64,000 bases of DNA from Calditrichaceae bacterium (GTDB lineage Bacteria > Calditrichota > Calditrichia > Calditrichales > JBFXGD01): positions 64,001 through 128,000 of the forward strand of contig JBFXLE010000009.1 of NCBI GenBank assembly GCA_050173015.1. The letters run 5' to 3'. The notes under the pieces were generated by a model that searched no databases, was not told where the DNA came from, and saw nothing but the letters and a program-made list of their open reading frames with translations. The stretch's first letter is position 1, and every line of letters starts with the position of its first letter. The translations under genes were made by a program, and so were the position numbers. Below are positions 41,699-63,571 of this stretch, piece after piece.

Positions 41699-41750
41699 CG
41701 GGTTACTTATCTGTTATACGCCGGTATCGACATAAGTATTGTATATAAGT

Positions 41751-42042
41751 TATAAACCGGAGGTTTGTCTTTTTGAAGACTCAGGGGTGGAAAGTATTCT
41801 GCCACAAGCATAGCAAATATTTTAAAAAAATCAGCTCAAAAAGCAGGAATAACAAAAACGATAACGCCGCCTACGCGGCGTTCTTGTTTTGCGACGCGGT
41901 TGCTTGCGCAGGGTAGGGATTTAAGGTATATTCAGGAGTAGTTAGGTCAAAATAGTCCCGGGAAGACTGAACTGCACCCGTTTCGAATAAGTCTATTGAT
42001 TGAATAAGGAATTCTGTTGATGATATTTTTGAAAAGGATTAG
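41751..42042 (+). pseudogene. Tyrosine recombinase C-terminal remnant, copy 1
   Basis: YKPEVCLFE / GGKYSATSIANILKKSAQKAGITKTITPPTRRSCFATRLLAQGRDLRYIQE*LGQNS...: box II (HxLRHSFATHLL...IQELLGH) with stops and frameshifts. Confidence 0.88.
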
Positions 42043-42059
42043 TTAATTGTAAAAAAAAT

Positions 42060-42131
42060 ATATAAACAATGGTTCATACACCGCCAATTTGGGGGGATAA
42101 GAACAATGGGATATATACGAACGTTATGGGC
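42060..42131 (+). repeat. attI-like site, copy 1
   Basis: Conserved ~65-bp block shared with 46508-46580 and 55378-55451; similarity ends at the GTT core (42123) where cassette 1 begins. Confidence 0.7.
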
Positions 42132-42254
42132 AAGGCAATGAAAGAAAACGCAATGGGAGTAATATTGTCAGGAAATAGAAAGTTGGAGACTAAAAATAGC
42201 TAATATAGATGAATGTTTTGAGAAAATAAAAATAGATTCTAAAGAGAAAATATT

Positions 42255-42761
42255 ATGAGTATATACACAGATAAAACATATGTTGCTTTTGATGCTGATA
42301 ATGATATCCACTACTACAGATTGATGCAAGCTTGGAAAAAAAATGATAATTCTTCATTTAACTTTTATGATGCTCACGATTTGAATAATTTGATGTCTTG
42401 GTCTTCAGAAGAAACAATAAAAGCGAGACTTGCTGAAAGAATGAAAAACTCAAAAGTCTTTATTTTACTTGTAGGAAATAACACAAAATTTCTATACAAA
42501 TTTGTTCGATGGGAAATTGATCAAGCTTTAAAAAGAGAAAAACCTATTATAGTTGTTAACTTAAATAAAAAGAGAAGCAGGGATACCGAACGATGTCCTG
42601 CTATTTTAAATAGTGAATTAGCGGTTCATATAAGTTTTAATCAAAAGATAATTGAATACGCAATAAATAATTGGCCTAGCTCTGAGGAGTATTACCGTAA
42701 GAACAATGAAAAAGGAGATTATTATTACAAAGATTCTGTTTATAAAGAATTAGGAATATGA
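42255..42761 (+). CDS. thsB: Thoeris ThsB TIR-domain protein (cassette 1)
   Basis: KTYVAFDADNDIHYYRLMQAWK...FNFYDAHDLN and FVRWEI with the catalytic Glu: MTH538-like TIR typical of type II Thoeris. Confidence 0.85.
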   Translation: MSIYTDKTYVAFDADNDIHYYRLMQAWKKNDNSSFNFYDAHDLNNLMSWSSEETIKARLAERMKNSKVFILLVGNNTKFLYKFVRWEIDQALKREKPIIVVNLNKKRSRDTERCPAILNSELAVHISFNQKIIEYAINNWPSSEEYYRKNNEKGDYYYKDSVYKELGI

Positions 42762-43663
42762 AAATGGGTATTTACAGATGGTTGTCGAAATATAAATCTA
42801 TCCTTACAGATTTGATGTCTGGTATAGGCCTTTTTTGGCTATTTGTTGAAATAGCAAGTTATTCGACAAATGGACAAATTGACAAATACACGAAAAGCAT
42901 AGCTTTTTTCTTAGTAGGGTTTGTATTAATCATTATTATAGTGCTAATAAAAAATAGGCCTAGAACATCTTTTTCCTATAAATTACGAGATAAAGATAAT
43001 TTCATAGAAGTTAAAGTAGGTGATGCTTTTGATAATAATGGAGCTTTAATAATTCCATTCAATAATTATCTTGATGTATCTCTCGGTGGTAATGTAAAAA
43101 AGGCTAATAGTCTGCAAAACAAACTTATAAAACAATATTATTTTGATAAAGAAGAACATTTAGTTCAAGATATTTTAAAAAAAACAAATCTAACTGCACC
43201 ATTTGATATTGGTACGACTGTAGAAATTGAACAAAAAGGTAAAAGTTTTTTTCTACTAGTTAATTCTCATAAAAAAGAAAATAACCGAGTTGTATCGACA
43301 GTTGATGACTTCTTATTGAGTTTATCGAAGGTTTGGGATTTCATTGCTTTGGAATCCGGAAGAAAAAGTATAGTAACAATTCCAATAATAAGTACAAATC
43401 ACGGCAGAATAACAGACTTAAACAGAATGAATGCGATAAAAGAAATTATTAATAGCTACGTTGAGGCTTCAAAGTTTCTAAATATTGCAGATAAATTGAT
43501 AATCAGCATTTTTCCAGACGATATAAATAAAGGAAATATTAAACTTGATGAAGTAGATGAATATTTAAAGTTTCAGTGTAATCATTATAGAAAAGTTCAT
43601 TTTTCACCTAAACTAGAAGGTAAAGAAGTAAGTCCTTCAGTTACAAAGGGTATTAATAATTAA
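42758..43663 (+). CDS. thsA: Thoeris type II effector ThsA (two TM helices plus Macro domain; cassette 1)
   Basis: Two N-terminal hydrophobic segments, then IEVKVGDAF...LIIPFNNYLD, IGTTV, IPIISTNHGR Macro-like motifs; overlaps thsB by 4 nt. Confidence 0.8.
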   Translation: MKMGIYRWLSKYKSILTDLMSGIGLFWLFVEIASYSTNGQIDKYTKSIAFFLVGFVLIIIIVLIKNRPRTSFSYKLRDKDNFIEVKVGDAFDNNGALIIPFNNYLDVSLGGNVKKANSLQNKLIKQYYFDKEEHLVQDILKKTNLTAPFDIGTTVEIEQKGKSFFLLVNSHKKENNRVVSTVDDFLLSLSKVWDFIALESGRKSIVTIPIISTNHGRITDLNRMNAIKEIINSYVEASKFLNIADKLIISIFPDDINKGNIKLDEVDEYLKFQCNHYRKVHFSPKLEGKEVSPSVTKGINN

Positions 43664-43721
43664 TTACAAGAATAATAGGAAATACAATAGGAAATTTTAA
43701 TTAAGGAAATTAAGAAGCCCA

Positions 43722-43856
43722 GCCCATAACAATGCATATACTTTATGGCGGGTTCCGTTATGAAAATGAGTATTTTAGTTTCAAATATAAATCAGTGTGG
43801 ACAGAAAGATTTGTCTTCCAAAGTCCGCCACAAAGCATATGCTTCCCGTTATGCAC
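43722..43856 (+). repeat. attC-like site 1
   Basis: GCCCATAAC...GTTATGCAC; inner arms GCATATACTTTATGGCGG / CCGCCACAAAGCATATGC. Confidence 0.85.
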
Positions 43857-43879
43857 AAGCTAAAAAAAGAATATAGTTA

Positions 43880-44737
43880 ATGATTATAATAAATGACAAG
43901 TCAATAGAGAAACTCAGAGACCTGATAAATGAAGAAACTGAATATCGGTCAGGTCCGAAACTCATCGAGTTTTTTAAAGACTTGGGCTTCAATGACTCTT
44001 ATGGTCAAGGATTTCCTTCTCGTTGGAAATATACTGATGATCGCCTTCGCAAAATTAACGGTAAACCAGAATTAGATAAGTGCATCAGAAAATTATTCAA
44101 TCCAGTTAATTTCATTGGCAAAACTTCTGAACTTGATAACCACATCAAAAATCTGAATCAATATTTAGCTTTTGATAAATGGCAGGTAGTTCGTAATGGT
44201 ACAGAAATAACTTTCAAAAAGAAAGATAAGGTTGAACTGCATGATGATTATGCAGAACTGAAAGCAGATGAATTTTTAGATAAAGAATTTGATGATATTT
44301 CAATAGATGCTCTAGGTCTTGATTCTATAGTTTCAGAAGTTCTCAAAATTCGTTTTGTAGAAATAAAGAATTGTTTTGCAGCAAAAGCACATTTGTCGGT
44401 CATTTTTCTTTCAGGCAGTAGTCTTGAAGGAATCCTACTAGGAATTGCTTTGAAGTCACCTACGGAATTCAACCAAGCTAAATCTGCACCTAAAGACAAG
44501 GAAGGCAAAGTCAAACAATTTCCTGATTGGACTTTGAGCCAACTAATTGACGTTACGTTTGAAGTTGGTCTCATCAAGGATGATGTGAAAAAATTTAGTC
44601 ATGCTCTTCGAGACTTCAGAAACTACATTCACCCATATCAGCAAGTAAGCTCGGGATTTAATCCTGATCACCATACAGCAAAAATTTGCTTTCAAGTATT
44701 GAAGGCAGGAGTATTTCAACTATCAAAAAACAAATAA
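43880..44737 (+). CDS. Putative AbiJ-like N-terminal domain plus HEPN-like C-terminal domain protein (cassette 2)
   Basis: N-terminal YRSGPKLIEFF...GFPSRWKYT; C-terminal SVIFLSGSSLEGIL...LRDFRNYIHP. Family assignment is from motif memory. Confidence 0.6.
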   Translation: MIIINDKSIEKLRDLINEETEYRSGPKLIEFFKDLGFNDSYGQGFPSRWKYTDDRLRKINGKPELDKCIRKLFNPVNFIGKTSELDNHIKNLNQYLAFDKWQVVRNGTEITFKKKDKVELHDDYAELKADEFLDKEFDDISIDALGLDSIVSEVLKIRFVEIKNCFAAKAHLSVIFLSGSSLEGILLGIALKSPTEFNQAKSAPKDKEGKVKQFPDWTLSQLIDVTFEVGLIKDDVKKFSHALRDFRNYIHPYQQVSSGFNPDHHTAKICFQVLKAGVFQLSKNK

Positions 44738-45076
44738 ATGGATACTACACAATTTAAAAACGGCTATTTCATTGAGAGAGTTTATCAACCAATCTCAGAA
44801 ACTGAATTCAAGTGTCGACTAATAGTTAAATCAAAGGCGAATAATCAAGAAATTACAGGAATAGAGACTAAAATAAATACCGTTGAGATTGGTCAGGGAT
44901 TAGCAGACTCACAATTTAGCGTTAATCCAATAAGTTGGGAGAGATATTTGAACCAGACAATTACAATGTTATTCAACATGTTGATGCTTCGTCTGAATAT
45001 TACCGACTTGCATAATGTTGACGGAGAAGATAAAATTTCTGAATTCTTTGACGAAAATCCGTTTCACCAAAATTAA
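44738..45076 (+). CDS. Hypothetical protein (cassette 2)
   Basis: 112-aa ORF abutting the upstream stop and ending 8 bp before attC-like site 2. Confidence 0.75.
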   Translation: MDTTQFKNGYFIERVYQPISETEFKCRLIVKSKANNQEITGIETKINTVEIGQGLADSQFSVNPISWERYLNQTITMLFNMLMLRLNITDLHNVDGEDKISEFFDENPFHQN

Positions 45077-45084
45077 AAAAGCCA

Positions 45085-45219
45085 GTGCCTAACATCGGCT
45101 ATAGCAAATGCGGGCTAAAGTGCTATAATGAAAGTAATTACACATAATAAACCAACTGCTAGTCGGACAAGTAAGTACCTTGAAACCCCGCACTTTCCAT
45201 AGCCATGACCGTTAGCTGC
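45085..45219 (+). repeat. attC-like site 2
   Basis: GTGCCTAAC...GTTAGCTGC; arms GGCTATAGCAAATGCGGG / CCCGCACTTTCCATAGCC. Confidence 0.85.
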
Positions 45220-45257
45220 AAGGTTAAGAGCGATACTGCAAAATTGAAAATTAAGAA

Positions 45258-46142
45258 ATGATTTTAGACTATTTAAATAAAACATTTAATAACAGAGAAA
45301 TCGTATTGATTTCCTATTTGACAATTTTCATTATATGGACACTTACACAGAAAAATATTAGACAGTCCATAGTGTCTGTGATTAAAGCATTTATGGCATG
45401 GAAGATACTTGTTTCAATATTTGTGTTGTTACTATATATTGCATTGATTGCTTTTGGATTATTTAAAATTGGACTTTGGGATAAATCCATGATTAAAGAT
45501 ACTGTTTATTGGACTTTTGGGGTCGGATTCATTATTATGATGAATTTTGACAAAGCATTGAAGGAAGAACACTATTTTAAGAACCTTGTCAAAGAAAATT
45601 TTAAAGTCCTTATAATCATTGAATTTATAGTTGGAATTTATGTTTTTGGTATCATCACTGAATTTATTTTAATGCCATTTGTGATTCTATTTTCAATGTT
45701 ATTAGGATACACTGAAGTTTATAAAGAGCATGGACAAGTTCGCAAATTTTTAAATGGAATCTTTGGCATCATAGGTACGATTTATTTAATTTATTCCGGT
45801 TATCATATTTACTCTGATTTTACTGGATTTGCAACTCTGGGGAATCTTAAAACATTTTTATTCCCTTTAATAATGTTTGTTCTATTTTTACCATTTGCAT
45901 ATTCCTTTGCACTATTGGCTCATTACGAGAGCTTATTCGTTCGATTAGGTTTTTTCCTTAAAGACAAAAAATTGAGAAGATTCGCTAAGTGGAGAATATT
46001 ATTGTCAGTAAATTTTAGCATTTTAAGATTAAAACGAATAACACCTGGAATGTTATTTAGTGACTGTTCTACTAGAGAAGATATAAAAAATGAGATAAAA
46101 AATAAAATAAACCCAGCAGCTAACACACAATATAGCCAATAA
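45258..46142 (+). CDS. Hypothetical polytopic membrane protein (cassette 3)
   Basis: 294 aa with about seven hydrophobic segments; the stop codon lies inside attC-like site 3. Confidence 0.8.
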   Translation: MILDYLNKTFNNREIVLISYLTIFIIWTLTQKNIRQSIVSVIKAFMAWKILVSIFVLLLYIALIAFGLFKIGLWDKSMIKDTVYWTFGVGFIIMMNFDKALKEEHYFKNLVKENFKVLIIIEFIVGIYVFGIITEFILMPFVILFSMLLGYTEVYKEHGQVRKFLNGIFGIIGTIYLIYSGYHIYSDFTGFATLGNLKTFLFPLIMFVLFLPFAYSFALLAHYESLFVRLGFFLKDKKLRRFAKWRILLSVNFSILRLKRITPGMLFSDCSTREDIKNEIKNKINPAANTQYSQ

Positions 46143-46254
46143 GGGTTTCAGTGGTATGCAAAGGGTTGTAGTGTAGCCCGCTCCAACTTTTCGTGTAACT
46201 TGATAGGAAATCACCCGCAATCCCTTACTGGCCATATTGTCAAGCGTTAGCTCC
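46116..46254 (+). repeat. attC-like site 3
   Basis: GCAGCTAAC...GTTAGCTCC; arms CAATATAGCCAATAAGGG / CCCTTACTGGCCATATTG. Confidence 0.85.
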
Positions 46255-46310
46255 AAGGCTAAAAAATAGAAACAAAAAGAATAAAATATTTGCCAAAAGG
46301 ATGAAAATAG

Positions 46311-46490
46311 AACGCCGCCTATGCGGCGTTATTGTTTTGCGACGCGGTTGCTTGCGCAGGGTACGGATTTAAGATATATTCAGGAGTAGTTATGTCATAT
46401 TAGTCCCGGGACGACTGAACTGCACACGTCTCAAATAAGTCAATTGATTGAATAAGGAATTCTGTTGATGATATTTTTGAAAGGGATTAG
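46311..46490 (+). pseudogene. Tyrosine recombinase C-terminal remnant, copy 2
   Basis: TPPMRRYCFATRLLAQGTDLRYIQE*L...; near-identical to 41863-42042. Confidence 0.85.
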
Positions 46491-46507
46491 TTAATCGTAA
46501 AAAAAAT

Positions 46508-46580
46508 ATATAAACAATTGTTCATATACCGCTGATTTGGGTGGATAAGAACAATAACATATACACGCACGTTAGGTTGC
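46508..46580 (+). repeat. attI-like site, copy 2
   Basis: TATATAAACAATTGTTCATA...GATAAGAACAATAACATATACACGCAC then GTTAGGTTGC (46571). Confidence 0.7.
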
Positions 46581-47845: not shown

Positions 47846-47982
47846 GCAACCTAGCACGCAATAAAAAACATAGGGCAGAAAGTGCAAAAATTGAACGACA
47901 TAACATTTAATAAACGACTTGGTAACTTGACAGGGAAGTGCTTCGAAATGCCAAACGTTTCATATACGTAACCGATAGCGTT
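47846..47982 (+). repeat. attC-like site 4 (degenerate cores)
   Basis: GCAACCTAGC (AAC to AGC) ... GATAGCGTT (GTT to GAT); arms still partly complementary. Confidence 0.75.
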
Positions 47983-48070
47983 CATTGTAAGGAGACAAAA
48001 CAACCGTCAGAATAATTATGGTATTTTTGCTGCATGAAGAAAAAAGAAAATATGGAAATAGCCACCGCAC

Positions 48071-48133
48071 AAATGGCATATTTGGTTTTTGCCGACGCAC
48101 AGCCAAACGCTGAAAAAACCAAAAGAGCCATTT
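48071..48133 (+). repeat. Inner hairpin motif H1 (5' end of cassette 5)
   Basis: AAATGGC-ATA-TTTGGTTTTT ... AAAAACCAAA-AGA-GCCATTT. Confidence 0.75.
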
Positions 48134-48163
48134 CTTGCCATCTCACGACTGAAAGATAATGAT

Positions 48164-51010
48164 ATGACAACATATAAAAATCAAAATCCTGAACAAATAG
48201 CCAGAGACAAAATTGACAAAATGTTAATTGAAGCTGGTTGGATTGTTCAATCTAAAAATGAAGTTGACTTGGGTGCAGGCAGAGGTGTTGCGTTGAGAGA
48301 ATACCAAACGGAAACAAAATTTGCGGATTATGTGCTGTTTGTTGACAAAAACCCTGTTGGAATTATTGAGGCAAAAAAAGAAGACGAAGGACATAAACTA
48401 ACCGTAGCGGAAGACCAAGCCTCTGAATATGCCAAAGCAAAACTAAAATATTTGGATAACGACCCATTGCCTTTTGTTTTTGAGAGTACCGGAACAATAA
48501 CCCGTTTTAGAGATACACGAGACCCAAAACCAAGAGGGCGACATATTTTTTGGTTTTACCGTCCCGAAACATTGGCGGAATGGCTACAAAAAGATAAAAG
48601 TTTAAGAGGTAGATTATTAGATATTCCGCAATTAAATGAGACTGGGCTTCGCCCTGCTCAAATTAAGGCGATTAATAACCTTGAACAATCTTTTAAAAAG
48701 AACAAGCCAAAAGCTTTAATACAAATGGCTACCGGAGCAGGTAAAACTTTTACTGCCTGTACTTTTGTGTATCGCTTATTGGAACACGCCAAAGCCAAAC
48801 GGATTTTATTTTTGGTTGACACCAAAAACTTAGGAGAACAAGCAGAACAGGAGTTTATGGCTTTTCAGCCCAACGACAGCAATCGCAAATTCACAGAATT
48901 GTATAATGTACAGCGTCTTACTTCAAGCTACATAGCAAGCGATAGTCAGGTTTGTATCTCTACCATTCAACGGATGTATGCCATTTTAAAAGGTGAAGAA
49001 CTAGACGAAGGAGCCGAAGATACAAACCCGAACGAATCGACCTGGATGGAACAACAGCGAAATAAAAAACAGGCAATGCCTGTGGAATATTCTGCCAAAG
49101 TACCCATTGAACAATTCGATTTTATTGTAATTGATGAATGCCACCGCTCTATTTACAATCTTTGGAAACAAGTGTTGGATTATTTCGATGCTTTCCTTAT
49201 CGGCTTAACTGCCACACCCGATAAGCGAACTTTTGGCTTTTTTGAGGAAAATGTAGTGAGCGAATATACCTATGAAGAATCTGTGTTGGATGGTGTAAAT
49301 GTTCCTTACGATGTGTACAATATTGAAACTGAAATTTCGCAAAAAGGCAGTGTGATAAAAGCAGGTTGGTTTGTGGACAGACGAGATAAGCTCACCCGAA
49401 AAACGCGTTGGCAACAAGAAGATGAAGACACCGAATATTTGAAAAACGATTTGGATAAAAAGGTCGTTAATCCAAGCCAGATACGGAATATTATTCGCCA
49501 ATACAAAAAAGCATTGGAAACCGAAATTTTCCCGAACAGAAAAGACGAAAATGGAGAATACGAAGTTCCTAAAACACTGGTTTTTGCAAAAACTGACAGC
49601 CACGCGGATGATATAATCAAAATCATTCGTAAAGAATTTGACGAAGGCGATGATTTCTGCAAAAAACTGACTTATAAAATAAAAGAAGACCCAAAATCGG
49701 TGTTAAACCGTTTTCGGAATTCATATCATCCCCGCATTGCGGTTACGGTAGATATGATTGCAACGGGAACCGATGTAAAACCTTTGGAAGTGTTGTTGTT
49801 TATGCGTGATGTTAAAAGCACCAACTACTTTGAACAAATGAAGGGTAGAGGAACACGCACCATTAACAAAGATGCTTTTCAGGCAAACAACACCAATGTA
49901 AAAGGGGCTTGCAAAACCCATTTTATTATTGTGGATGCAGTTGGCGTAACAAAGTCGAAGAAAACCGACAGCCGGCCTTTGGAACGCAAACCAACTGTAG
50001 CCTTAAAAGATTTATTGGGAGCGGTAACAATGGGAGTTACCGAAGAAGATTTGTTTCTTTCGCTTGCAAATCGTTTGATACGATTAGAAAAAGAAATTAC
50101 CGACAAGGAAAAAGATAAATTACTGGAACATTCCAAAGGCAAAAATCTGAAACAAATCAGCAAAGAATTATTATCGGCTTTTGATAAAGATGAAATTGAA
50201 AACAGAGCACAGGAAAAAATTGAAAAATTCTGTAAAGACGCCCTACAGGGCGTCTCTTCTGCTGCCGATTTATCTCCGGCACAAATAGAATCTTTCCGAC
50301 AGGACGCACAGAAAGAATTGATTAATACCGCCGCTTCTACTTTTAACGGAAAGCTGAACGATTATATTGAAAAAGTGCGTATGGAACACGAGCAAATTAT
50401 CGACAGCCACAATATCGACACCGTAACAAAATCGGAATGGGACACCGCTTCGGTGGATAAAGCCAAAGAAACTGTAAAAGATTTTAACGAATACCTCGAA
50501 GCCAATCAGGACGAGATAAAAGCATTGACCATTTTTTACAAACAACCCTACAACCGCCGAAACATTACCTTTAAAATGATTAAAGATGTGTTTGATAAAC
50601 TGAAATTGGATAAACCCACCCTTGCCCCCGATTATGTTTGGGCGGCATACAGCCAATTGGAAGAGGTAAAAAGCAAACAACCGATTGACGAACTCACCGC
50701 GTTAATTTCGTTAATTCGCAGGGCTTGCGGAATTGACAGCGAGTTGAAAGCTTTTGATTCCACCATTGACGAAAATTTCAAAAACTGGATTTTCAAACAA
50801 AACGCAGGCAAGCACAACCGCTTTACAACCGAACAAATGGACTGGCTGCGAGAACTGAAAAATCACGTAGTAAATTCGTATCACATAGAAATTGAAGACC
50901 TCGATTATACACCCTTTGATGAAAAAGGAGGACGTGGCAAAATGTACCAACTCTTTGGTGCCGAAATGAACGATATTATTAATGAACTTAACGAGGTATT
51001 AGCAGCATAA
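48164..51010 (+). CDS. hsdR: Type I restriction enzyme, R subunit (cassette 5)
   Basis: ADYVLF...IIEAKK nuclease motif, MATGAGKT, DECH, TATP, QMKGRGTR. ATG 48164 is preferred because the track start 48089 lies inside hairpin H1. Confidence 0.95.
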   Translation: MTTYKNQNPEQIARDKIDKMLIEAGWIVQSKNEVDLGAGRGVALREYQTETKFADYVLFVDKNPVGIIEAKKEDEGHKLTVAEDQASEYAKAKLKYLDNDPLPFVFESTGTITRFRDTRDPKPRGRHIFWFYRPETLAEWLQKDKSLRGRLLDIPQLNETGLRPAQIKAINNLEQSFKKNKPKALIQMATGAGKTFTACTFVYRLLEHAKAKRILFLVDTKNLGEQAEQEFMAFQPNDSNRKFTELYNVQRLTSSYIASDSQVCISTIQRMYAILKGEELDEGAEDTNPNESTWMEQQRNKKQAMPVEYSAKVPIEQFDFIVIDECHRSIYNLWKQVLDYFDAFLIGLTATPDKRTFGFFEENVVSEYTYEESVLDGVNVPYDVYNIETEISQKGSVIKAGWFVDRRDKLTRKTRWQQEDEDTEYLKNDLDKKVVNPSQIRNIIRQYKKALETEIFPNRKDENGEYEVPKTLVFAKTDSHADDIIKIIRKEFDEGDDFCKKLTYKIKEDPKSVLNRFRNSYHPRIAVTVDMIATGTDVKPLEVLLFMRDVKSTNYFEQMKGRGTRTINKDAFQANNTNVKGACKTHFIIVDAVGVTKSKKTDSRPLERKPTVALKDLLGAVTMGVTEEDLFLSLANRLIRLEKEITDKEKDKLLEHSKGKNLKQISKELLSAFDKDEIENRAQEKIEKFCKDALQGVSSAADLSPAQIESFRQDAQKELINTAASTFNGKLNDYIEKVRMEHEQIIDSHNIDTVTKSEWDTASVDKAKETVKDFNEYLEANQDEIKALTIFYKQPYNRRNITFKMIKDVFDKLKLDKPTLAPDYVWAAYSQLEEVKSKQPIDELTALISLIRRACGIDSELKAFDSTIDENFKNWIFKQNAGKHNRFTTEQMDWLRELKNHVVNSYHIEIEDLDYTPFDEKGGRGKMYQLFGAEMNDIINELNEVLAA
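50232..50259. repeat. Degenerate REP palindrome in frame inside hsdR
   Basis: GTAAAGACGCCC-TACA-GGGCGTCTCTTC, translated as CKDALQGVSS. Confidence 0.7.
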
Positions 51011-54848: not shown

Positions 54849-54863
54849 GCCCAGCCCAAAAAC

Positions 54864-55179: not shown

Positions 55180-55361
55180 AACGCCGCCTATGCGGCGTTA
55201 TTGTTTTGCAACGCGGTTGCTTGCACAGGATAGGGATTTAAGGTATATTCAGGAGTAGTTAGGTCATAATCGTTCCGGGACTACTGAAATTTGCGCACAT
55301 CTCAAAAAAGTCTATTGATAAAAACAGTAATCCTACGGATGATATCTTTGAAAGGGATTAG
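55180..55361 (+). pseudogene. Tyrosine recombinase C-terminal remnant, copy 3
   Basis: TPPMRRYCFATRLLAQDRDLRYIQE*LGHNRSGTTEICAH: the catalytic Tyr position reads Cys. Confidence 0.87.
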
Positions 55362-55377
55362 ATAATTGTAAAAGAAA

Positions 55378-55451
55378 TATATAAACAATTGTTCATACAC
55401 CGCCAATTTGGGCGGATAAGAACAATAGAATATATACGAACGTTGTGTGGC
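55378..55451 (+). repeat. attI-like site, copy 3
   Basis: TATATAAACAATTGTTCATACACCGCCAATTTGGGCGGATAAGAACAATAGAATATATACGAAC then GTTGTGTGGC (55442). Confidence 0.7.
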
Positions 55452-56482: not shown

Positions 56483-56619
56483 GCCACACAACAAAAAATA
56501 TAGTGCATTTGGCAGATGGTGCTAAAAATGAAAATGATTGCAATAAATGAACATAGTAGTAAATTGAAAGCTTGGAGCGTTGAAATGCCAAACGCACCAT
56601 ATTCAAACCGTTGTATGCC
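56483..56619 (+). repeat. attC-like site 6
   Basis: GCCACACAAC...GTTGTATGCC; arms AATATAGTGCATTTGGCA / TGCCAAACGCACCATATT. Confidence 0.85.
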
Positions 56620-56643
56620 ATGCTGGAAACGAGCTAACCGCAC

Positions 56644-56705
56644 AAATAGCACATTTGGTTATTGCTGACACAAAAGCAAAGGCTGAAAAACTAAAAGAGC
56701 TATTT
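56644..56705 (+). repeat. Inner hairpin motif H3 (5' end of cassette 7)
   Basis: AAATAGC-ACA-TTTGGTT ... AACTAAA-AGA-GCTATTT; homologous to H1. Confidence 0.75.
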
Positions 56706-56737
56706 TATTGTCAAACGCACATAGACTAAAACTAAAA

Positions 56738-59700
56738 ATGAATGAAGAAATAGTATCAGCAAGTGGAGAAAGAGCAGCAATGGGAGGCTATTTGCCTCAA
56801 TTTGATGAGTTCGCTTGGTTTGTCTATTTGAATCTAATAAATAAAAAGCTTGAATGGATACGAATAGCAGACTCCAAGGCTGAAAAACTAGATGATATAC
56901 AGTATTCTACTCATTCAGAAATTCATGCATACCAAGTAAAATGGACTATCGCTGATGCAAATATATCATTTGCAAATTTTACGGATTTGTTTCCTCTTAT
57001 CACCTCTAGTTGGAAGAGTTTAAAAACAGCTAATCCTAGCAAAAAAATAATTCCTCATTTAATCACTAACAAACCTATTTCCTCCCACGACAGCTTAAAG
57101 GTAGGCGATACAAAAATCGGTTCATTTCAAGACTTCGTCTCAGAAGTTTGGGTAAAGCTAAAATCAAATCAATCAATTGATGATAAGTGGAAACAAGTTC
57201 TTGAGGAACTCAAAAAGAGTTCAAAACTCAATGATTCTGAATTTGGAGAATTTATCATCTCTTTTGATTTTCAACCAGACTATAAACAAAAACAGTTTAG
57301 TATAGGAAATATTAAATACTCTAAAGAAGACGAAGACCTTCAACAGATCAGTCGATATATAGTACAAAAAGTTGCTAGCCCGAAAAGAGTCGTTGAATTT
57401 ACTCGCCAAGAAATTATTAAAGAATTAGGTTGGTCTGATAGATTTAAAACAATTTTTAATCACGAGTTAATAGTCGATAGACAAAGATACCAGCCGATTC
57501 AATCGACAATTGACCTGTTAAATTCAAAGTTAGAGGAGCATAAAAATGGATACCTGTTTTTGCTAGGTGGCCCAGGTTCTGGAAAATCTACCTTATTGAA
57601 TCAATGGTCAAAAGGCCTTAAAACACGAATAATACGATACTACGCCTTTGATTTCGTTAATCCATCTTCACACTTAAACTTTTATGAAAGAGGAAATGCT
57701 ACCCATCTTTTTTTCGATTTAGTTTTTCAATTAAAGGAAGCTGGAATATATAAAAGAGACATTCTTCCATATAAAGACTTACTTTTTCTAAAAGATGTAT
57801 TCAATGAGCAATTAAGTGCAATTGGAGAGGACTTTGTGACAAATGGTCAATCGACCATAATATTGATTGATGGTCTAGATCATGTTCCTAGGGAATACAA
57901 ATCAACAACTAATAGTTTCCTACGAGAACTTCCTTTACCATCTTCTCTCCCAAACGGGGTCTTCATCATTTTAGGTAGTCAATCTTATGAACTTGAAGAC
58001 ATTCAACAGGAAATTAAAACTGAATTTCAGAAAGGAAATAGAACCATTCAAATTGATCCACTTAAAAAGGAGGAAGTATACAAGTACATTGATAATCTTG
58101 ATACTTCAATTCAACTTAATGGTTCTCAAAAGCTGCAAATATTTGAGAAATCAGAAGGACACCCGTTATACCTGTCATACTTAATTGAAAAAATCAATAA
58201 CGCAGATTCTATTAACGATACAATCGAATCTTTTGAAGTTATTGATGGTAGTATTGATAATTATTACAAAAAAATATGGGAGCCTATCCAGAAAGAAGAT
58301 AGCCAAATTCAATTCTTAGGTTTAATTGCGAGAATTAATGGTTTGATCAAACTTCAGTTCATTCAGGAATGGGACTTCCAACCGAGTGTTTTAAAGTCCT
58401 TTCGTGAAAAGGCCAGATTTCTGTTTAATGAAACCGAAAAAACTTTGTCTTTCTTTCATAATTCGTTCAAGCAATTCCTTCTTCATCATACCTCTTTAAA
58501 TTACTTAACAGATGAGTTTGATCCGACAATTAACGTCAATTATCATAGTCAACTTACTGATTATTATGTAAAATCAGAGATTGAAAAATCCTGGAAACAG
58601 AATCATCACCTATTTCAGGCTAAACAATATGATAAGTTTATTTCAGAAGTTACCCCAAATAGTATTACTGAACAGTTACTTAACTTCAGACCAGCAGAAG
58701 AAATTAAGCAGGATGCAAAATTGGGAGTTGAAATAGCAAGACAGAATAAGGACATTAATACTCTGGTAAGATATCTGTTTTCATTAGCAGAAATTGAAAG
58801 AAGATTATTCAATATTGATCCCACATCCTTTATAGAAGAACTTTTGTACCTAAATAAATACGACTTAGCAAGGGATTATCTAAGAACTGGCAACACCCTC
58901 CATTGTAGCGAATCGTACGCATTTAAAGCATGTCGATTGTTTATTGAATCTGGGCACAAATCAGAAGGAGCAACTTTATACAATTTGGCTTATCCAGAAA
59001 TCATTACAGATTCCGGGATACATATTGATGATTCTCACAGATATGAAGAAATAAGAGATTCTTTAGAAGAATGGATTTATACTTCTCCCTATTTTGAAGC
59101 AACCGAGAATATTTTCTCAATAATTGAGAAAATTCAATTCTCAGGTAGCATACGGAAAAACAGGTTTGAAGAAGAAGAATCTGATTTACTTTTAAGGTTA
59201 CTCTCTAATCTTGGTTATAGTTTAGTGGATCAAAACAAGTGGGATGATTTTAATAAAGTCATAGAAAAAATAGATTCGAGGTCTTCAAGAGGAAGGAATT
59301 CTCTTTTCCAACTTATAAAGTACGCTATCGAGCAATGCCTTGACTTAAAAGATAGTAGTCGAGTGAATGAATATCTGTCATTTTTAACCACTCATTTCAC
59401 AAAAGAGAAGACAAAATCCATTGGCAAAATATTCATTGCAGATTTAGTCTATAAAGTCACTAGAGACCTAAATGAAACATATAGTTGGATTAAGGAAGTT
59501 GAGCAACCATCTAATGTGGGTAAAGACCAGCTAGGATATGATGATTCGTTAGACGCCTTTCTTCCATTAATCAAACTTAACAAGTTACTTAACCTATGTG
59601 GAAAAGGAGTTTCGATTACGTCTGCAATTCCATCTGTTGCGAAAGGTACTGATGAAGAAGTTTTAGTGGAGTTTGAACGAATGTTATGTATTACCACTCA

Positions 59701-62700
59701 AATTCTAGCCGAGGGCATTCTTCAAACACCAATGCCAGGTGATCCTATTAAAAGAGTATTTCCAATTGTTCGGTTTTATTACAAAGAAATATCCCACCGA
59801 AACAGCTATTGGTATAAGCTGACACAAGCAAAAGGCCAATATTATGATTTTTTGATTTCGGCGGTGTCTGAATTGGGTACTGAAAAATTAGAATTATTAG
59901 GAGATTATTTGTTCAGTGAGTTTAAGAATATTCCAAAATATTGGAGTACAAGTGTCCAGCGGAAAATCATTAAATCCCTCTTGAATAAAGGGTTTAATGC
60001 TAAAAAAGCAGTAATAAAGTTGAGATCCATAGAGGATTCCATGTTGGAAGGTCACGATATAGATGGCCGTATAACCGAATGCTTGGCCCACTCAAAAGTA
60101 TGGTTCATTTTAGGCAAGCTAGATGAAGGTGAAATATGGCTCAAACAGGCTATTCAAGAATCTATTGGAGTAGGATATAGAAAAGATTATCAATTTAGTA
60201 CATGGATTGAATGGTTAAGAAAAATAAACCATAAAGACCCATCAAAAGCTACTGAAAGAATAAAGTGGTTCTTATCTCATTTAAAACATATTAAAGAAAC
60301 CACGGAGGGAAGGGCTTATTGGAATGCTTCTGAAGAATTATTAGAAGTCGCATATGAACACAATCTGGAAGATGGCTTAGAGCAGGCTATTTGGCAATTA
60401 AAGAACGATCTAATAGACTTTAAAGATTCAATTGCTCTTTTCATAAAATATTTTATGATAAAAACAAAAAGTAAAGAAGAGTTCAAAAGTATTGTTCAAC
60501 TATATAGTGATTTATATCTGCTTCTTGCTGAATCTGCCAATTCTTCCCTGCTCAAATCTATCTTAGAAAAAGGGCATGAAATTTTAAAAGAAGATTTTTT
60601 AGTAGAACATGCTCAAGCCATTATTTCGGCAATAGAAATTAAAGCTTACGAAGAAACCAGACATTACTTACTATCTGAAATTGATAACTTCTATACATCA
60701 AAAGGGCTAAAAGCAGAAGACTATTATTCACGGTTTAATATACCGGCAAAAAGCGAAAGAAATAGTTCATCAACATCTTCTAACACATTGACTTTAAAGA
60801 CAGATCATGAAAAGATTGATGAAAGTGAAGTACTAAAACGAGTTACAAATTTTGAAGATTTCAAAAAAATCATTCAAGAAGAAGATCAGGCAAATTCATT
60901 TTTTAATTGGTCAAAGGTTATAGATAAAATAGCTCCATTATTGTCTTCAAGTCAAATTGAAGAAATCACCAAACTGGCTAGAATAGGAAGGAGAGAGTCA
61001 GATTTCTATGCTAAATTAAGTGAGGCTGCCTTGGAGCTAGAAAACACAGAACTCGCAACTAGTTTAGCCAATAAAAGTATTGAGTTATCGAGCGAATCGG
61101 GGTGGGTAAAATATTATGATGGAGGAACAAGAATCAATGCATTTAATGCACTAAAACGAATCAATCCTGCAATATCATCTAATAAGGCATTTGAAGTATT
61201 TGCTCATGATATAGTAACCAGTAATTATCCAAGTTCATATATCGAACATCTTGAAGACATCGTTCCACTTTTAACAGAAAATTATGTTGAGGAAGAGCTT
61301 TGGCATGAAATATATGGTTACCTGCAAAGACTGATGTCGAATAGTAAACCGGTTGAGGATTTACCTGTTCTTCCATCATTAAATCGTCCAATCATAGAAA
61401 CCTTAGTCGATTATATGGTGTATTTATCACAGAGTCCCGTCTCAATAATAAAGGAGCAATCTTTACAGCTATTGGCAAAATATATAAATCAAGATAATGA
61501 CTATGCTTTGACTCAATTACTGAATGGACGTTTAGATGATTACTCAAGTATGAACGTGATGATGAAATTAACTGCGTTCAACTCCCCCAAAGTCCATTTG
61601 CTTAAATCAAAGATCAATAGTTTAGCTATATCAAATGACTATCAATTAAGAGAAAGCTCAAAACAAATACTTTCCTCAATTCAAGAAGAAATTCCAACTC
61701 CCAAAAACATCGAATTATCTAAAGTATACTCTTTCCATATTCCAGAAACTGAAAAACCAGATTTTAGAAAAGAGATTGACCCTTATTTCCCAGAAGTTGA
61801 TACTAATGACCCCCGTGATCTGATACGACCATTTGAATTTTTAATCAAAATCTTATCTGAGGAGTCTGGGATTAATGAATCTAACCTTATATATAGAGCC
61901 TACTCGATCATGAAAGAAATTGGTCGAGAGGAGGAATGGTCCGTTGAGTATGAAAAAAAGCTTAGAAATCATTTAGAAGAAATTTACCTAAGATACTCTT
62001 ACCCTAGACCAAGGGTAATTGCGGCTCGAAGAGCCATAATGCATGTCACCAATGAATTAATAGATTCTGGAACAATTGATGATGAGCGAATTCAGAAACC
62101 TTTTATATCACATGATTATGCGGTTCTGTTTTTTAATGAAATAGCAAAACCTGAATTCATTCAAACTATTAAAGAGAGAGATTTTGGAGGAGTTGGCAAT
62201 GATTGGTTAGATCGAATAGGTGAATCAGAAAGATTAAACGAATCAATATTAGACTATAATGATAACTTCAAGATTATTGCAGAATATAATCAAGTTAAAA
62301 ATTTAGATTGGGGTTCTCCTACTGAAGAATACATGTACCAAATTGCGGTTAATGAGGAGTTGGATGAAGAAGATAATTACATTTTTGGCTCTGTTTTTCA
62401 CCAATTAAGCAGTAACTATCATGATTTGAGAAGTGGTGGACATTTTATTGTTGTAGTCAGGGATCATAGATTTGACCAATTTGATCTGAAATCTAAGTGG
62501 ATTGCAATTAACCCTGTTTTGGCTAGATACTTAGGATGGGAGCCTGAAACAACCAAATTATTTGCTTGGAAAAACTCGCAAGGTGAATTGATGGCGGAAT
62601 CAATTTATTGGTCAAATGGAAATATTAACATGACACCTCGTAAGGATGGAGAAGTCGGGGAAGGGTGGTTTGTTATTGTTTCCAAAGATGGATTAGAGAA

Positions 62701-62809
62701 GATAAAATCTATCGAGAAGAAATTGTTTCTGCAAAAGAAATTAACAAGATCTAAATTTGAAGATTCAGTTCTAATGAATAATCAAGCAATTAGTGTGACA
62801 AAAATTTGA
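56738..62809 (+). CDS. PD-(D/E)xK nuclease - STAND/NACHT NTPase - helical repeat protein, Avs/NLR-like (cassette 7)
   Basis: N-terminal AAMGGYLPQ...KLDDI...AYQVKW nuclease motif, Walker A GGPGSGKST, Walker B ILIDGLD, EGHPLYL (GxP), long helical C-terminus. ATG 56738 is preferred over track start 56708. Confidence 0.85.
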   Translation: MNEEIVSASGERAAMGGYLPQFDEFAWFVYLNLINKKLEWIRIADSKAEKLDDIQYSTHSEIHAYQVKWTIADANISFANFTDLFPLITSSWKSLKTANPSKKIIPHLITNKPISSHDSLKVGDTKIGSFQDFVSEVWVKLKSNQSIDDKWKQVLEELKKSSKLNDSEFGEFIISFDFQPDYKQKQFSIGNIKYSKEDEDLQQISRYIVQKVASPKRVVEFTRQEIIKELGWSDRFKTIFNHELIVDRQRYQPIQSTIDLLNSKLEEHKNGYLFLLGGPGSGKSTLLNQWSKGLKTRIIRYYAFDFVNPSSHLNFYERGNATHLFFDLVFQLKEAGIYKRDILPYKDLLFLKDVFNEQLSAIGEDFVTNGQSTIILIDGLDHVPREYKSTTNSFLRELPLPSSLPNGVFIILGSQSYELEDIQQEIKTEFQKGNRTIQIDPLKKEEVYKYIDNLDTSIQLNGSQKLQIFEKSEGHPLYLSYLIEKINNADSINDTIESFEVIDGSIDNYYKKIWEPIQKEDSQIQFLGLIARINGLIKLQFIQEWDFQPSVLKSFREKARFLFNETEKTLSFFHNSFKQFLLHHTSLNYLTDEFDPTINVNYHSQLTDYYVKSEIEKSWKQNHHLFQAKQYDKFISEVTPNSITEQLLNFRPAEEIKQDAKLGVEIARQNKDINTLVRYLFSLAEIERRLFNIDPTSFIEELLYLNKYDLARDYLRTGNTLHCSESYAFKACRLFIESGHKSEGATLYNLAYPEIITDSGIHIDDSHRYEEIRDSLEEWIYTSPYFEATENIFSIIEKIQFSGSIRKNRFEEEESDLLLRLLSNLGYSLVDQNKWDDFNKVIEKIDSRSSRGRNSLFQLIKYAIEQCLDLKDSSRVNEYLSFLTTHFTKEKTKSIGKIFIADLVYKVTRDLNETYSWIKEVEQPSNVGKDQLGYDDSLDAFLPLIKLNKLLNLCGKGVSITSAIPSVAKGTDEEVLVEFERMLCITTQILAEGILQTPMPGDPIKRVFPIVRFYYKEISHRNSYWYKLTQAKGQYYDFLISAVSELGTEKLELLGDYLFSEFKNIPKYWSTSVQRKIIKSLLNKGFNAKKAVIKLRSIEDSMLEGHDIDGRITECLAHSKVWFILGKLDEGEIWLKQAIQESIGVGYRKDYQFSTWIEWLRKINHKDPSKATERIKWFLSHLKHIKETTEGRAYWNASEELLEVAYEHNLEDGLEQAIWQLKNDLIDFKDSIALFIKYFMIKTKSKEEFKSIVQLYSDLYLLLAESANSSLLKSILEKGHEILKEDFLVEHAQAIISAIEIKAYEETRHYLLSEIDNFYTSKGLKAEDYYSRFNIPAKSERNSSSTSSNTLTLKTDHEKIDESEVLKRVTNFEDFKKIIQEEDQANSFFNWSKVIDKIAPLLSSSQIEEITKLARIGRRESDFYAKLSEAALELENTELATSLANKSIELSSESGWVKYYDGGTRINAFNALKRINPAISSNKAFEVFAHDIVTSNYPSSYIEHLEDIVPLLTENYVEEELWHEIYGYLQRLMSNSKPVEDLPVLPSLNRPIIETLVDYMVYLSQSPVSIIKEQSLQLLAKYINQDNDYALTQLLNGRLDDYSSMNVMMKLTAFNSPKVHLLKSKINSLAISNDYQLRESSKQILSSIQEEIPTPKNIELSKVYSFHIPETEKPDFRKEIDPYFPEVDTNDPRDLIRPFEFLIKILSEESGINESNLIYRAYSIMKEIGREEEWSVEYEKKLRNHLEEIYLRYSYPRPRVIAARRAIMHVTNELIDSGTIDDERIQKPFISHDYAVLFFNEIAKPEFIQTIKERDFGGVGNDWLDRIGESERLNESILDYNDNFKIIAEYNQVKNLDWGSPTEEYMYQIAVNEELDEEDNYIFGSVFHQLSSNYHDLRSGGHFIVVVRDHRFDQFDLKSKWIAINPVLARYLGWEPETTKLFAWKNSQGELMAESIYWSNGNINMTPRKDGEVGEGWFVIVSKDGLEKIKSIEKKLFLQKKLTRSKFEDSVLMNNQAISVTKI

Positions 62810-62831
62810 CCATGAATCCAAACGCTCGCAT

Positions 62832-62893
62832 CCATACACATTGGCAAATCGCACAGGACAGCCACACCAGCCAAAATTTGCCAAAGAGTATGG
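62832..62893 (+). repeat. Inner hairpin motif H4 (3' end of cassette 7)
   Basis: CCATAC-ACA-TTGGCAAAT ... ATTTGCCAA-AGA-GTATGG; homologous to H2. Confidence 0.75.
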
Positions 62894-62932
62894 CTGCACC
62901 AACGCCGCCAGAAAAGAAAATGAAAAAGCACG

Positions 62933-63059
62933 GGCATACAACAATGTGTATAATTCATAAGGGTTTCAGCGGATTGCAAGCCGTATCACCCGCATCAAAT
63001 TCGGGTGGTAACTTGATAAGTAAAAAGTTCGCAATCCCTTACGAATCATAGTTAGCTCC
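62933..63059 (+). repeat. attC-like site 7 (right spacer deleted)
   Basis: GGCATACAAC...GTTAGCTCC; arms TATAATTCATAAGGG / CCCTTACGAATCATA joined directly to GTT. Confidence 0.8.
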
Positions 63060-63132
63060 AAGGCTAAAAAATAGAAACAAAAAGAATAAAATGTTTGCCA
63101 AAAGAATAGAAATAAAAGCCACCGCACAGTAA

Positions 63133-63187
63133 GCACATTTGCAATTCGCGCGAGCCGGCGCGAAAACCAAAAATTGCAAAAGATTGC
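63133..63187 (+). repeat. Inner hairpin motif H5 in the terminal cassette stub
   Basis: GC-ACA-TTTGCAATT ... AATTGCAAA-AGA; closest to H2. Confidence 0.65.
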
Positions 63188-63571
63188 AATCTTGCCGGCG
63201 CGTGACTGAATACGAATAGAAAACTATATAATTTGGAATTGAACTAATGAAATTATCACCCGCGCGATTAGAGAACTTGATCCCGGAATTTATCGGATAT
63301 CTTATCCGTTAAGTATAAATAATATCGAAATTATAACTGTACGACATAACACTTTTATCAGAAACAGATCCTAAAAAATAAATCAAAGGCGATACAACAA
63401 CACAATCAAGGTAACAAAAAAGCGGTTACTGTAGATTGTCTCCCTATTATTACACACCGTGGTAGATCATCAGAAACCCGACAAGCGCCGGACGCCGGTT
63501 TTTTGCGCCAAAACGTGGAGGTGATACCTTATGCAAAAAACGATTTTAAAAAATAGTACAGGATTTAAACT

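Follow-up and report, generated by a model that had tools for sequence, protein, structure and literature searches.

What kind of element brought together the 21.6-kb run of co-oriented genes and recurrent palindromes found in the 64-kb stretch of Calditrichaceae DNA analyzed here (the window)? The run is an integron-like row of swappable gene cassettes, several of which carry anti-phage systems, and it is not a classical integron. The explanation we favor, at a probability of about 0.7, is a chromosomal cassette array of an integron-like system, now decayed, in which cassettes were exchanged at G|TT by a short Xer/XerA-like tyrosine recombinase rather than by an integron integrase (IntI).

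Nine units lie between crossover points (Table 1), seven of them gene-bearing cassettes (1, 2, 3, 5, 6, 8, and 9) and two of them modules in which a recombinase remnant is joined to an attI-like site. The separators are imperfect palindromes of ~135 nt with AAC/GTT cores, and all cassette genes are on the + strand. The original prediction had called seven cassettes from seven start/end pairs, and all of the pairs are present where it placed them, but it overlooked the two 325-bp remnant plus attI-like units (modules 2 and 3). The GC content is 0.29-0.40 across 42-63 kb versus 0.42-0.45 in 36-42 kb (except for one 1-kb bin of 0.40).

Table 1 Features of the cassette array and its right flank, in window coordinates.
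Feature	Start	End	Strand	Content
Recombinase remnant, copy 1	41730	42050	+	Final ~100 codons of a B-type Xer-like tyrosine recombinase, interrupted by stops and frameshifts
attI-like hairpin 1	42051	42125	+	Ends ...ACG|TT; the G|TT is the start of cassette 1
Cassette 1	42123	43850	+	Thoeris: ThsB TIR 42255-42761, ThsA Macro 42758-43663; attC1 43722-43856
Cassette 2	43848	45213	+	Two genes, 285 aa and 112 aa; attC2 45085-45219
Cassette 3	45211	46248	+	Single 294-aa gene, no family; attC3 46116-46254
Module 2	46246	46573	+	70-nt "terminal leader" 46246-46312, recombinase remnant, attI-like hairpin with ACG|TT at 46571
Cassette 5	46571	47976	+	Two genes (194 aa, 150 aa) without a family; degenerate attC5 47846-47982 (cores AGC and GAT)
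Cassette 6	47974	55117	+	Type I R-M: hsdR 48089-51010, hsdS 51010-52548, hsdM 53328-54848; attC6 54991-55123
RAYT-like gene	52701	53312		Within cassette 6
Module 3	55115	55444	+	70-nt leader, recombinase remnant, attI-like hairpin with ACG|TT at 55442
Cassette 8	55442	56612	+	Two genes (195 aa, 139 aa) without a family; attC8 56483-56618
Cassette 9	56610	63053	+	2033-aa NACHT/STAND protein (Avs-like) 56708-62809; attC9 62933-63059
Array end	63051	63190	+	70-nt leader shared with modules 2 and 3; one second-family hairpin after it; no attC beyond
vWA-domain gene	63572	64000	+	465 aa, continues past the window end; 140-aa membrane protein next

The boundaries of the cassettes carry the argument for exchange. 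Over the 7 nt beyond GTT/AAC, the cassette starts match the reverse complements of their own ends at 44 of 49 positions, whereas each end matches the R' next to it in the array at 25 of 49 (chance expectation, ~1.9 matches per 7 nt). When the start/end pairings were permuted, the identity pairing alone (1/5040) reached 44. Cassettes 1-3 have nine matches, an AA/TG mismatch, and then three to four further matches; both the self-complementarity and its resumption past a short mismatch had been noted in the original prediction. An imperfect palindrome of ~109-122 nt lies between each ...AAC and the following GTT.... Cassettes 2 and 3 also occur in contigs from two other studies, at ~96-97% likeness with the onset exactly at the predicted G|TT. 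In run X3, a contig of 2960 nt aligns with 43848-45125 from the G|TT onward, and in run X5 one of 996 nt aligns with 45211-46171, beginning at G|TT after 26 unlike letters. The comparison used Logan contigs rather than raw reads and is informative only where contigs cover the stretch. As each of runs X2-X8 holds small shares of the stretch, no habitat is named from them. The boundary matches and the onsets at 43848 and 45211 place the crossover between the G and TT of R', as in integrons. The original prediction turned on whether homologues elsewhere are bounded by the same junctions, and the likeness of the foreign contigs to these two cassettes starts there.

All seven sites have the R''-L''...L'-R' arrangement of integron sites, as imperfect palindromes with AAC/GTT cores. 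In the consensus, a 6-bp R box (TAAC/GTTA) is separated by an unpaired, asymmetric spacer from an 18-bp stem, the bottom strand of which carries two fixed G.T wobbles. The window sites share 24 pairs, 13 of them covarying. In 43 sites from 25 sources, aligned by fitting to the model, which favors pairing, 93% of cells are paired and 18 of the 24 pairs change on both sides, a result reached by 0 of 500 shuffles. The extrahelical (bulge) columns that characterize integron sites are filled in only one or two of the 43, in either arm. Scores with the site model (R1) were 118 bits for attC1, 128.9 for attC2, 119 for attC3, 112 for attC6, and 99.9 for attC9. The attC5 site has mutated cores and folds poorly (z = +1.3 on the bottom strand versus -1.9 to -3.6 for five others) and attC6 folds weakly (z = -0.5). 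The attC8 site has a 92% identical counterpart behind a different gene in another genome (G004:C13). The sites attC3, attC6, and attC9 are related, one closing each of three sub-arrays. Rfam gave no match in 41000-64000, and sliding-window folding of locus L051 did not discriminate sites. A simple AAC/GTT stem scanner recovered five of the seven window sites and nothing convincing in the IntI loci of relatives. The idea that the R-M and NACHT operons sit in an "empty site" flanked by an 8-9-bp duplication was dropped, as the shared letters are part of copies of one hairpin family.

Each sub-array is headed by a recombinase fragment. The remnant is 65.6% identical over 64 aa to an intact 278-aa Calditrichaceae Xer/XerA-like recombinase (B-type) versus 33-40% to IntI. 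Copy 1 gives a partial TIGR02249 match (window 41801-41953, one stop) and contains a GC-rich terminator-like hairpin (41863-41882). Neither IntI nor an intact recombinase of the Xer-like family was found in the genome (97.5% complete) or in the 64-kb window, the best TIGR02249 score in the genome being 87.6 bits versus a cut-off of 265. Members of the Xer-like family score above the NF040815 cut-off and below that of TIGR02249, and have a gap in place of the ~42-residue IntI insert. In a quick tree, the deep branches of which have no resolution, IntI, the A-type recombinases, and an IS-like clade form separate starred clades. In Calditrichota, Ignavibacteriota, and Bacteroidota, intact genes of the family stand at the head of arrays whose hairpins belong with those of the window. 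Side and strand are fixed: R1 sites lie upstream on the + strand at A-type loci and downstream on the - strand at B-type loci. Such sites were detected at 23 of the 64 recombinase loci searched (69 found), including 12 of 20 A-type loci; in the other eight the gene is within ~1.2 kb of a contig end. At the level of whole genomes the link is weak for both enzymes, with R1 sites in 14 of 19 genomes having the Xer-like recombinase and 22 of 41 having IntI. The prediction that this G|TT platform departs from classical integrons holds in each respect examined, namely the type of recombinase, the orientation, and the structure of the sites. The enzyme is Xer/XerA-like without the IntI insert, its gene is co-oriented with the cassettes and abuts the insertion site by its 3' end, and the sites fold as 135-nt hairpins whose 18-bp stem is unbroken and free of extrahelical bases.

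Could the hairpins instead be intergenic REP- or MITE-like repeats, or terminators, with no role in recombination, their complementarity being that of palindromic repeat ends? They lie downstream of operons, fold stably, and are dispersed; the search of genomes with a site model that the original prediction called for found R1 sites in 39 of the 86 class genomes. Repeats of this sort, however, predict pairing of R'' with R' within one copy, and R'' instead pairs best with its own cassette's start, which lies 1.2-7 kb upstream, by the counts given above. Likeness to the foreign contigs breaks at G|TT, and the sites are strictly co-oriented with genes and polar relative to a recombinase gene. 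We consider this reading very improbable. It is also unlikely that the locus is a plain CALIN, in which clustered classical attC sites were left behind by a canonical IntI integron or are acted on by one in trans, with the Xer-like fragments as incidental neighbors. An R1 search of eight IntI-flanking loci gave no match, and the canonical attCs found beside IntI in this class (as in G044) are ~78 nt long with an extrahelical G that is absent from R1 sites. The CALIN reading gains from the presence of IntI above the TIGR02249 cut-off in 41 of the 86 class genomes, and from the attC-like architecture of the window sites, with R box, spacer, stem, AAC/GTT cores, and a length within the known attC range. 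Moreover, one R1-type site is part of a genuine IntI integron (G044:C12), ~5 kb from IntI and in a tandem row with canonical attCs, and others are on the same contigs as IntI fragments (G024:C13 and G032:C154). Given these occurrences, IntI may also use R1 sites. Incidental fragments, however, would not account for an Xer-like recombinase that adjoins R1 arrays on a fixed side and strand, Bacteroidota included, nor for the coupling of the attI-like hairpin to the recombinase 3' end, seen in five copies in this genome and at an intact locus (L071).

Intact relatives of this type have the recombinase gene, immediately after it a ~75-nt attI-like hairpin ending ACG|TT, and then co-oriented cassettes, each closed by a ~135-nt hairpin site. 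On the Xer-type cassette reading, cassettes would come and go in circular form through strand exchange between the G and TT of folded sites, by analogy with integrons; we infer single-stranded folded substrates and circular intermediates. In this genome the recombinase has decayed to its last ~100 codons. Because the genome retains neither the cognate recombinase nor IntI, the array has probably become a frozen defense island. With one site degenerate in addition, calling the cassettes excisable was an overstatement. The putative insertion site is itself a hairpin, ~80 nt of which are conserved in 17 of the 86 class genomes, with the likeness ending exactly at GTT. At L071 it directly follows the stop codon of the intact recombinase and shows a compensatory stem change.

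The head module is present three times. Module 2 is 91% identical to copy 1 over 263 nt (repeat families D1-D4 aligned), and a sigma-70 promoter scan of two head modules showed no excess over shuffles. We infer duplication in place: two further copies of the module may have arisen within the array, the simplest route being a single illegitimate join and then unequal crossing-over, with three insertion sites in one array as the outcome. A rather doubtful alternative is that three small platforms, each with a remnant, attI-like site, cassettes, and leader, were acquired separately in tandem. Each sub-array does close with one of the related sites and a common 70-nt leader, divergence among the module copies is 9-17%, the sub-arrays have no common cargo, and in genome G004 the platform occurs with a single cassette and, after it, that leader again. 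Separate acquisition is nevertheless hard to reconcile with the leader|remnant junction, which is identical in copies 2 and 3 and needs a single origin. Nor was any integration-site duplication seen at the island borders. The notion that a sub-array is one mega-cassette was rejected, since by eye the starts do not complement the ends of attC6 and attC9, which also speaks against separate acquisition.

The description of all seven as defense cassettes was too generous: recognized systems are present in three (Thoeris, type I R-M, and an Avs-like NACHT protein), one more gives a weak PADLOC match, and the remaining three have no matches. Cassette 1 matches Pfam PF08937 and PF20016 and the PADLOC models of ThsB (1e-73) and ThsA (1.7e-39); its ThsA is the only homologue in the class (1 of 86 genomes). 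Cassette 6 matches Pfam ResIII, EcoEI_R_C, Methylase_S, and N6_Mtase, with NF047646 at 59.9 bits, below the cut-off of 80. Cassette 9 matches Pfam NACHT and PADLOC Avs1b (2.4e-39 over residues 269-597). The 285-aa protein of cassette 2 has a weak Stk2/AbiJ-like N-terminus (PADLOC Stk2, 5e-10), and cassettes 3, 5, and 8 gave no match in Pfam, NCBIfam, or PADLOC. Four of the seven cassettes are without known function. When the 14 cassette proteins were compared by tblastn with the 119 loci fetched, only hsdM gave matches (L042, L063, and L073), and no direct sharing of cassettes with those arrays was seen. The vWA gene and the 140-aa membrane protein beyond the array both fall within a 23.8-kb island that is missing from a genome of the same genus (G001); the flank at 63200-64000 has no match in G001 because it is island DNA. 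The Xer-type cassette reading explains this strain-specific defense island.

Like integrons, especially sedentary chromosomal ones, the array has an insertion site beside a tyrosine recombinase gene and promoter-poor co-oriented cassettes, each with a terminal imperfect palindrome bearing R/L boxes and AAC/GTT cores. Crossover is at G|TT, which leaves the start of each cassette complementary to its own end, and related sites recur within one array. A minority of integrons, the "inverted" integrons, have intI co-oriented with the cassettes. In contrast to integrons, the recombinase of this array is without the ~42-residue insert specific to IntI and groups apart from the IntI clade, the sites have two fixed G.T wobbles in place of extrahelical bases, the attI-like site is a conserved hairpin, cassettes reach 6.4-7.1 kb, and there are three insertion sites in one array. 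The array shares with CALINs its seven attC-like sites and the lack of an intact integrase nearby, and would count as one (at least two attC, no integrase nearby) only if R1 sites count as attC. CALINs, however, are defined by the attC model of IntegronFinder, and the remnants here show that the lost enzyme was not IntI. Defense cargo is likewise described for Vibrio SCIs (bioRxiv 10.1101/2024.07.02.601686). Integron integrases are thought to have acquired the use of folded single-stranded sites with the gain of an extra helix that grips extrahelical bases (PMC4792948, PMC7790495). We give roughly even odds to a broader proposal, that Calditrichota, Ignavibacteriota, and Bacteroidota harbor a second integron-type gene-capture lineage. 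Its Xer-like recombinase, devoid of the I2/extra domain, would recombine hairpins without extrahelical bases, choose the strand via fixed G.T wobbles, and insert cassettes at a site that is a hairpin. If this is true, the IntI extra domain is not required for cassette capture, and the evolution of cassette capture becomes directly testable.

Our literature search found no description of Xer-type or insert-less integrons, and it found rAID as a relative. The nearest published relative is rAID-1, the recombinase-associated acquired interbacterial defense clusters of gut Bacteroidales (bioRxiv 10.1101/471110; PMC12247911). The novelty claimed in the original prediction was therefore overstated. 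In the accessible text of Ross et al. (bioRxiv 10.1101/471110), an XerD-like recombinase heads co-directional low-GC genes with integron-like intergenic repeats. The criteria given there are a XerD-like recombinase at the 5' end that is at least 44% identical to BF9343_RS08045, at least two co-directional genes of GC content no higher than 41%, conserved repetitive intergenic motifs, and a cargo of orphan interbacterial immunity genes. Here too at least two co-directional low-GC genes lie downstream. The array has a conserved site family, which may or may not correspond to the rAID-1 motif. In a Bacteroidales MAG (L075), the R1 model also picks out four sites that lie downstream of the recombinase in a common orientation. 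The available parts of the rAID-1 descriptions give no hairpin structure, crossover point, or attI. The present array differs in its Calditrichota host, its dead recombinase, and a cargo of anti-phage systems and large operons rather than short T6SS orphan immunity genes, no immunity families being matched in the cassettes by Pfam, PADLOC, or NCBIfam. Should the proposed lineage be real, phyla thought nearly integron-free would have cassette platforms of their own, which would explain the near-absence of integron-finder reports in Bacteroidota, and rAID-1 would be one branch of these platforms, tied to a defined mechanism.

The original prediction held that each cassette begins with the reverse complement of its own end, and a sequence check found all seven start and end pairs in place. 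When the 7 bases beyond the common GTT/AAC were counted in the seven cassettes (49 positions in total), starts were identical to the reverse complement of their own ends at 44 of 49 positions, versus 25 of 49 for the R' next in the array after each end, and among the 5040 start-end pairings tested only the true pairing attained 44. The resumption of the match noted earlier also held: cassettes 1-3 have nine matches, an AA/TG mismatch and three to four further matches.

Each AAC is separated from the next GTT by an imperfect palindrome of 109-122 nt (seven sites). The bottom strand folded better than shuffled sequences at five of the seven sites (z -1.9 to -3.6). The site after cassette 5 is weak (z +1.3) with cores mutated to AGC and GAT, as is the site after cassette 6 (z -0.5). 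Read along the bottom strand, the consensus opens with TAAC and a spacer of 5-6 nt; an 18-bp stem then encloses a variable loop, and a second spacer of 2 nt leads to GTTA. It contains 24 pairs, 13 of which show compensatory changes. A covariance model of these ~135-nt sites (R1) gave matches in 39 of the 86 Calditrichia genomes. In a broader set (43 sites from 25 sources), 93% of cells were paired, although the alignment was fitted to the R1 model, which favors pairing. Two-sided changes were found at 18 of the 24 pairs (218 cells), and none of 500 shuffles or six slid registers approached this pairing and covariation. Two G.T wobbles are almost fixed (38/43 and 43/43 sites). Extrahelical bases were sought in the R1 sites, where bulge columns are occupied in just 1-2 of the 43, whereas attC sites beside a bona fide IntI of the same class (genome G044) measure ~78 nt and carry the extra G in L'' typical of classical attC.

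In a second hairpin family of ~60 nt (arm, CAYATTKG, 20-30-nt loop, CMAAAGAG, arm), two A.A mismatches are conserved and the arms show compensatory changes. The restriction-modification (R-M) operon and the NACHT gene each have one copy at either end, and a lone copy comes after the array. A regular expression gave four matches in the array and three in the remainder of the 4.3-Mb genome, and similar hairpins occur in foreign contigs, often ~30 nt past a GTT core. They may act in regulation or termination, or may form another family of sites.

Array genes are all on one strand and have a GC content of 0.29-0.40, versus mostly 0.42-0.45 across six 1-kb bins upstream. The description of all seven cassettes as defensive stands for the three with recognized defense systems; none was recognized in the other four.

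Features of the array and of related loci (window positions unless a locus is named)
Feature	Position	Strand	Content
Array head	41730-42125		Remnant with a longer part of the recombinase gene; attI-like hairpin
Cassette 1		+	Thoeris: ThsB TIR, ThsA Macro
Cassette 2		+	285 aa, weak Stk2/AbiJ-like match; 112 aa
Cassette 3		+	294 aa, no family; only unnamed clusters in protein atlas
Head module	46246-46573		No gene cassette; 325 bp
Cassette 5		+	194 aa and 150 aa, no family
Cassette 6		+	Type I R-M (hsdR, hsdS, hsdM), RAYT-like gene within
RAYT-like gene (REP-associated tyrosine transposase)	52701-53312		Between hsdS and hsdM; NF047646 59.9 bits, below cut-off 80
29-nt palindromes	51598-51626, 52600-52628, 53028-53056		Perfect or near-perfect; three copies around RAYT-like gene
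Head module	55115-55444		No gene cassette; 325 bp
Cassette 8		+	195 aa and 139 aa, no family
Cassette 9		+	2033-aa NACHT protein, NTPase region Avs1b-like
Leader at array end	63051-63117		Further copy of 70-nt leader
~60-nt hairpins	48064-48140, 54858-54925, about 56643-56700, 62837-62888, 63134-63184		Second hairpin family
GC hairpins in remnants	41863-41882, 46311-46330, 55180-55199		Perfect 8-bp hairpin and T-rich run
Second array, same genome	G000:C5:153649-163464 (L046 7650-17465)		Five or six R1 sites; headed by recombinase remnant and attI-like hairpin; DNA methylase and 594-aa partner, CN-hydrolase, Rce1/CPBP-like protease, catalase-peroxidase
Further recombinase remnant, same genome	G000:C43:2480-2688
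Mercury-resistance cassette	L048 (G031:C1) 5994-9032		ArsR/MerR-like regulator, MerT-HMA, MerA-like reductase; intact A-type array; one 3.4-kb cassette between two R1 sites
R1-type site in IntI integron	L051 (G044:C12) 1985-2330		135 nt, AAT for AAC; directly beside canonical ~78-nt attC, no gene between

The two head modules lie between crossover points, and each joins a 70-nt leader to the 3' remnant of a recombinase gene and to an attI-like hairpin of ~75 nt with ACG|TT at its end; the same remnant and hairpin open the array. Matches of the three remnants to the IntI model (TIGR02249) are confined to its C-terminal part, and the remnants contain stops. Remnant copy 1 shares 65.6% identity (64 residues) with the intact 278-aa recombinase of a Calditrichaceae MAG (locus L071, the same as L035), versus 53% with the G031 type and 33-40% with IntI. 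The leader|remnant junction is the same in copies 2 and 3, and this identity is the one basis for inferring the history of the three modules (probably in-place duplication, with tandem acquisition as the rival). Note that the GC hairpin inside each remnant, terminator-like in appearance, occupies the codons of the TPHxLRHSFATH box of intact genes, and in copies 2 and 3 the junction falls at its foot.

At the intact L071 locus the attI-like hairpin begins ~25 nt past the recombinase stop codon, ends ACACG|TT and has a stem of TTGTGC/GCACAA where the window copies have TTGTTC/GAACAA, a compensatory difference. The module's terminal ~80 nt were found in 17 of the 86 class genomes, the likeness stopping at GTT in eight of nine aligned copies (the G026 row failed to align). 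Cassettes 1, 5 and 8, the first after attI-like hairpins, follow the own-end complementarity rule, which argues that the G|TT ending these hairpins has served as an insertion point.

No IntI was found in the window's genome, which is 97.5% complete (best TIGR02249 score 87.6 bits, cut-off 265), and 41 of the 86 class genomes have an IntI above this cut-off. On NF040815 ('site-specific tyrosine recombinase/integron integrase', cut-off 220) the Xer-like recombinase family scored 228-240 bits, and on TIGR02249 it reached 214-229 bits, split in two stretches; its alignment has a gap of 31+6+5 residues exactly at the position of the IntI-specific insert. In a quick IQ-TREE analysis of 44 proteins (three truncated rows left out), separate starred clades were formed by IntI (100), by the A type typified by G031 (99) and by an IS-like group (100); the B type was not one clade, and the tree gave no firm deep branching order. 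The tight IS-like clade (L083, L084, L079, L074 and L076) comprises ~284-aa relatives from Paludibacter-like Bacteroidota, in which a conserved ORF directly follows the recombinase gene in place of the attI-like hairpin. The presence of at least six identical copies on one metagenome chromosome suggests an insertion sequence.

Scanning one genome per species gave 69 recombinase loci; R1 was run on 64 of these, with matches at 23. Within the class, the A-type genes of G031, G036 and G021 are divergent from R1-site arrays, the first cassette beginning 85-100 bp from the start codon (G031, G036); the cassettes of G031 carry, among other genes, a mercury-resistance operon and a methylase. Twenty loci (Calditrichota, Ignavibacteriota and two gammaproteobacterial MAGs) are 54-100% identical to the G031 enzyme. 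Twelve had R1 matches; at the other eight there was little upstream sequence because the gene lies within ~1.2 kb of a contig end. R1 sites of A-type loci lie upstream in '+' orientation, the exceptions being L062 (one distant downstream match) and L107 (additional downstream matches). Those of B-type loci (L071, Draconibacterium L072, L069, L075, L091 and L113) lie downstream in '-' orientation, the co-oriented arrangement seen in the window; an exception is Gaetbulibacter L087, with a B-like sequence and upstream sites.

At the genome level, co-occurrence does not separate the two enzymes: R1 sites were found in 14 of 19 genomes with an Xer-like enzyme and 22 of 41 with IntI (a tally in which related genomes are not independent). 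IntI may also use R1 sites. The IntI integron of G044 has one R1-type site in its row of canonical attCs, and contigs of G024 and G032 that carry IntI fragments have R1 sites as well.

Evidence of movement came from other genomes and from contigs of separate studies. The genes flanking the island (M49 peptidase and MFS-like) are ~130 bp apart in G001, of the same genus, and 23.8 kb apart here (41700 to about 65466), and so the whole island, including the vWA gene and small membrane protein past the array, is strain-specific. G004 has a minimal version, in which an attI-like hairpin precedes a single cassette that carries another gene; next come a site with 92% identity to attC8 (the site closing cassette 8), the same leader and a type I R-M system. 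A 2960-nt Logan contig (run X3) aligns to 43848-45125 with 51 differences, its likeness beginning at the G of the predicted G|TT, and a 996-nt contig (run X5) has 26 unlike letters and then matches 45211-46171 with 32 differences, again from the G of G|TT. The attC1 and attC8 sites were also found by themselves in foreign contigs. These are contigs rather than reads, and what they document is occurrence in a different context, not excision.

The element belongs to an Xer-type, integron-like cassette family and has decayed. Among its cargo are Thoeris, a type I R-M system and an Avs-like gene, and the array in the window's genome is probably no longer active. The system would work like an integron but lacks two defining features of the classical kind, the IntI insert and the extrahelical bases. 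Together with the co-oriented B-type layout, these absences support the central idea of a cassette platform differing from classical integrons. In the literature searched, no integron recombinase without the insert was described together with hairpin sites. The accessible text of one report describes defense cassettes in Vibrio sedentary chromosomal integrons (10.1101/2024.07.02.601686), and IntegronFinder 2.0 reported that complete integrons are almost absent from Bacteroidetes. Of published systems, rAID-1, the recombinase-associated defense clusters of gut Bacteroidales, comes closest in layout. A 2025 preprint (PMC12247911) keeps the same definition of rAID-1, the words integron, hairpin and attC being absent from its accessible text. 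The corresponding text of the earlier rAID-1 report places an XerD-like recombinase on the 5' side of low-GC genes that run in the same direction, the repeats between these genes being termed 'reminiscent of integrons' (10.1101/471110).
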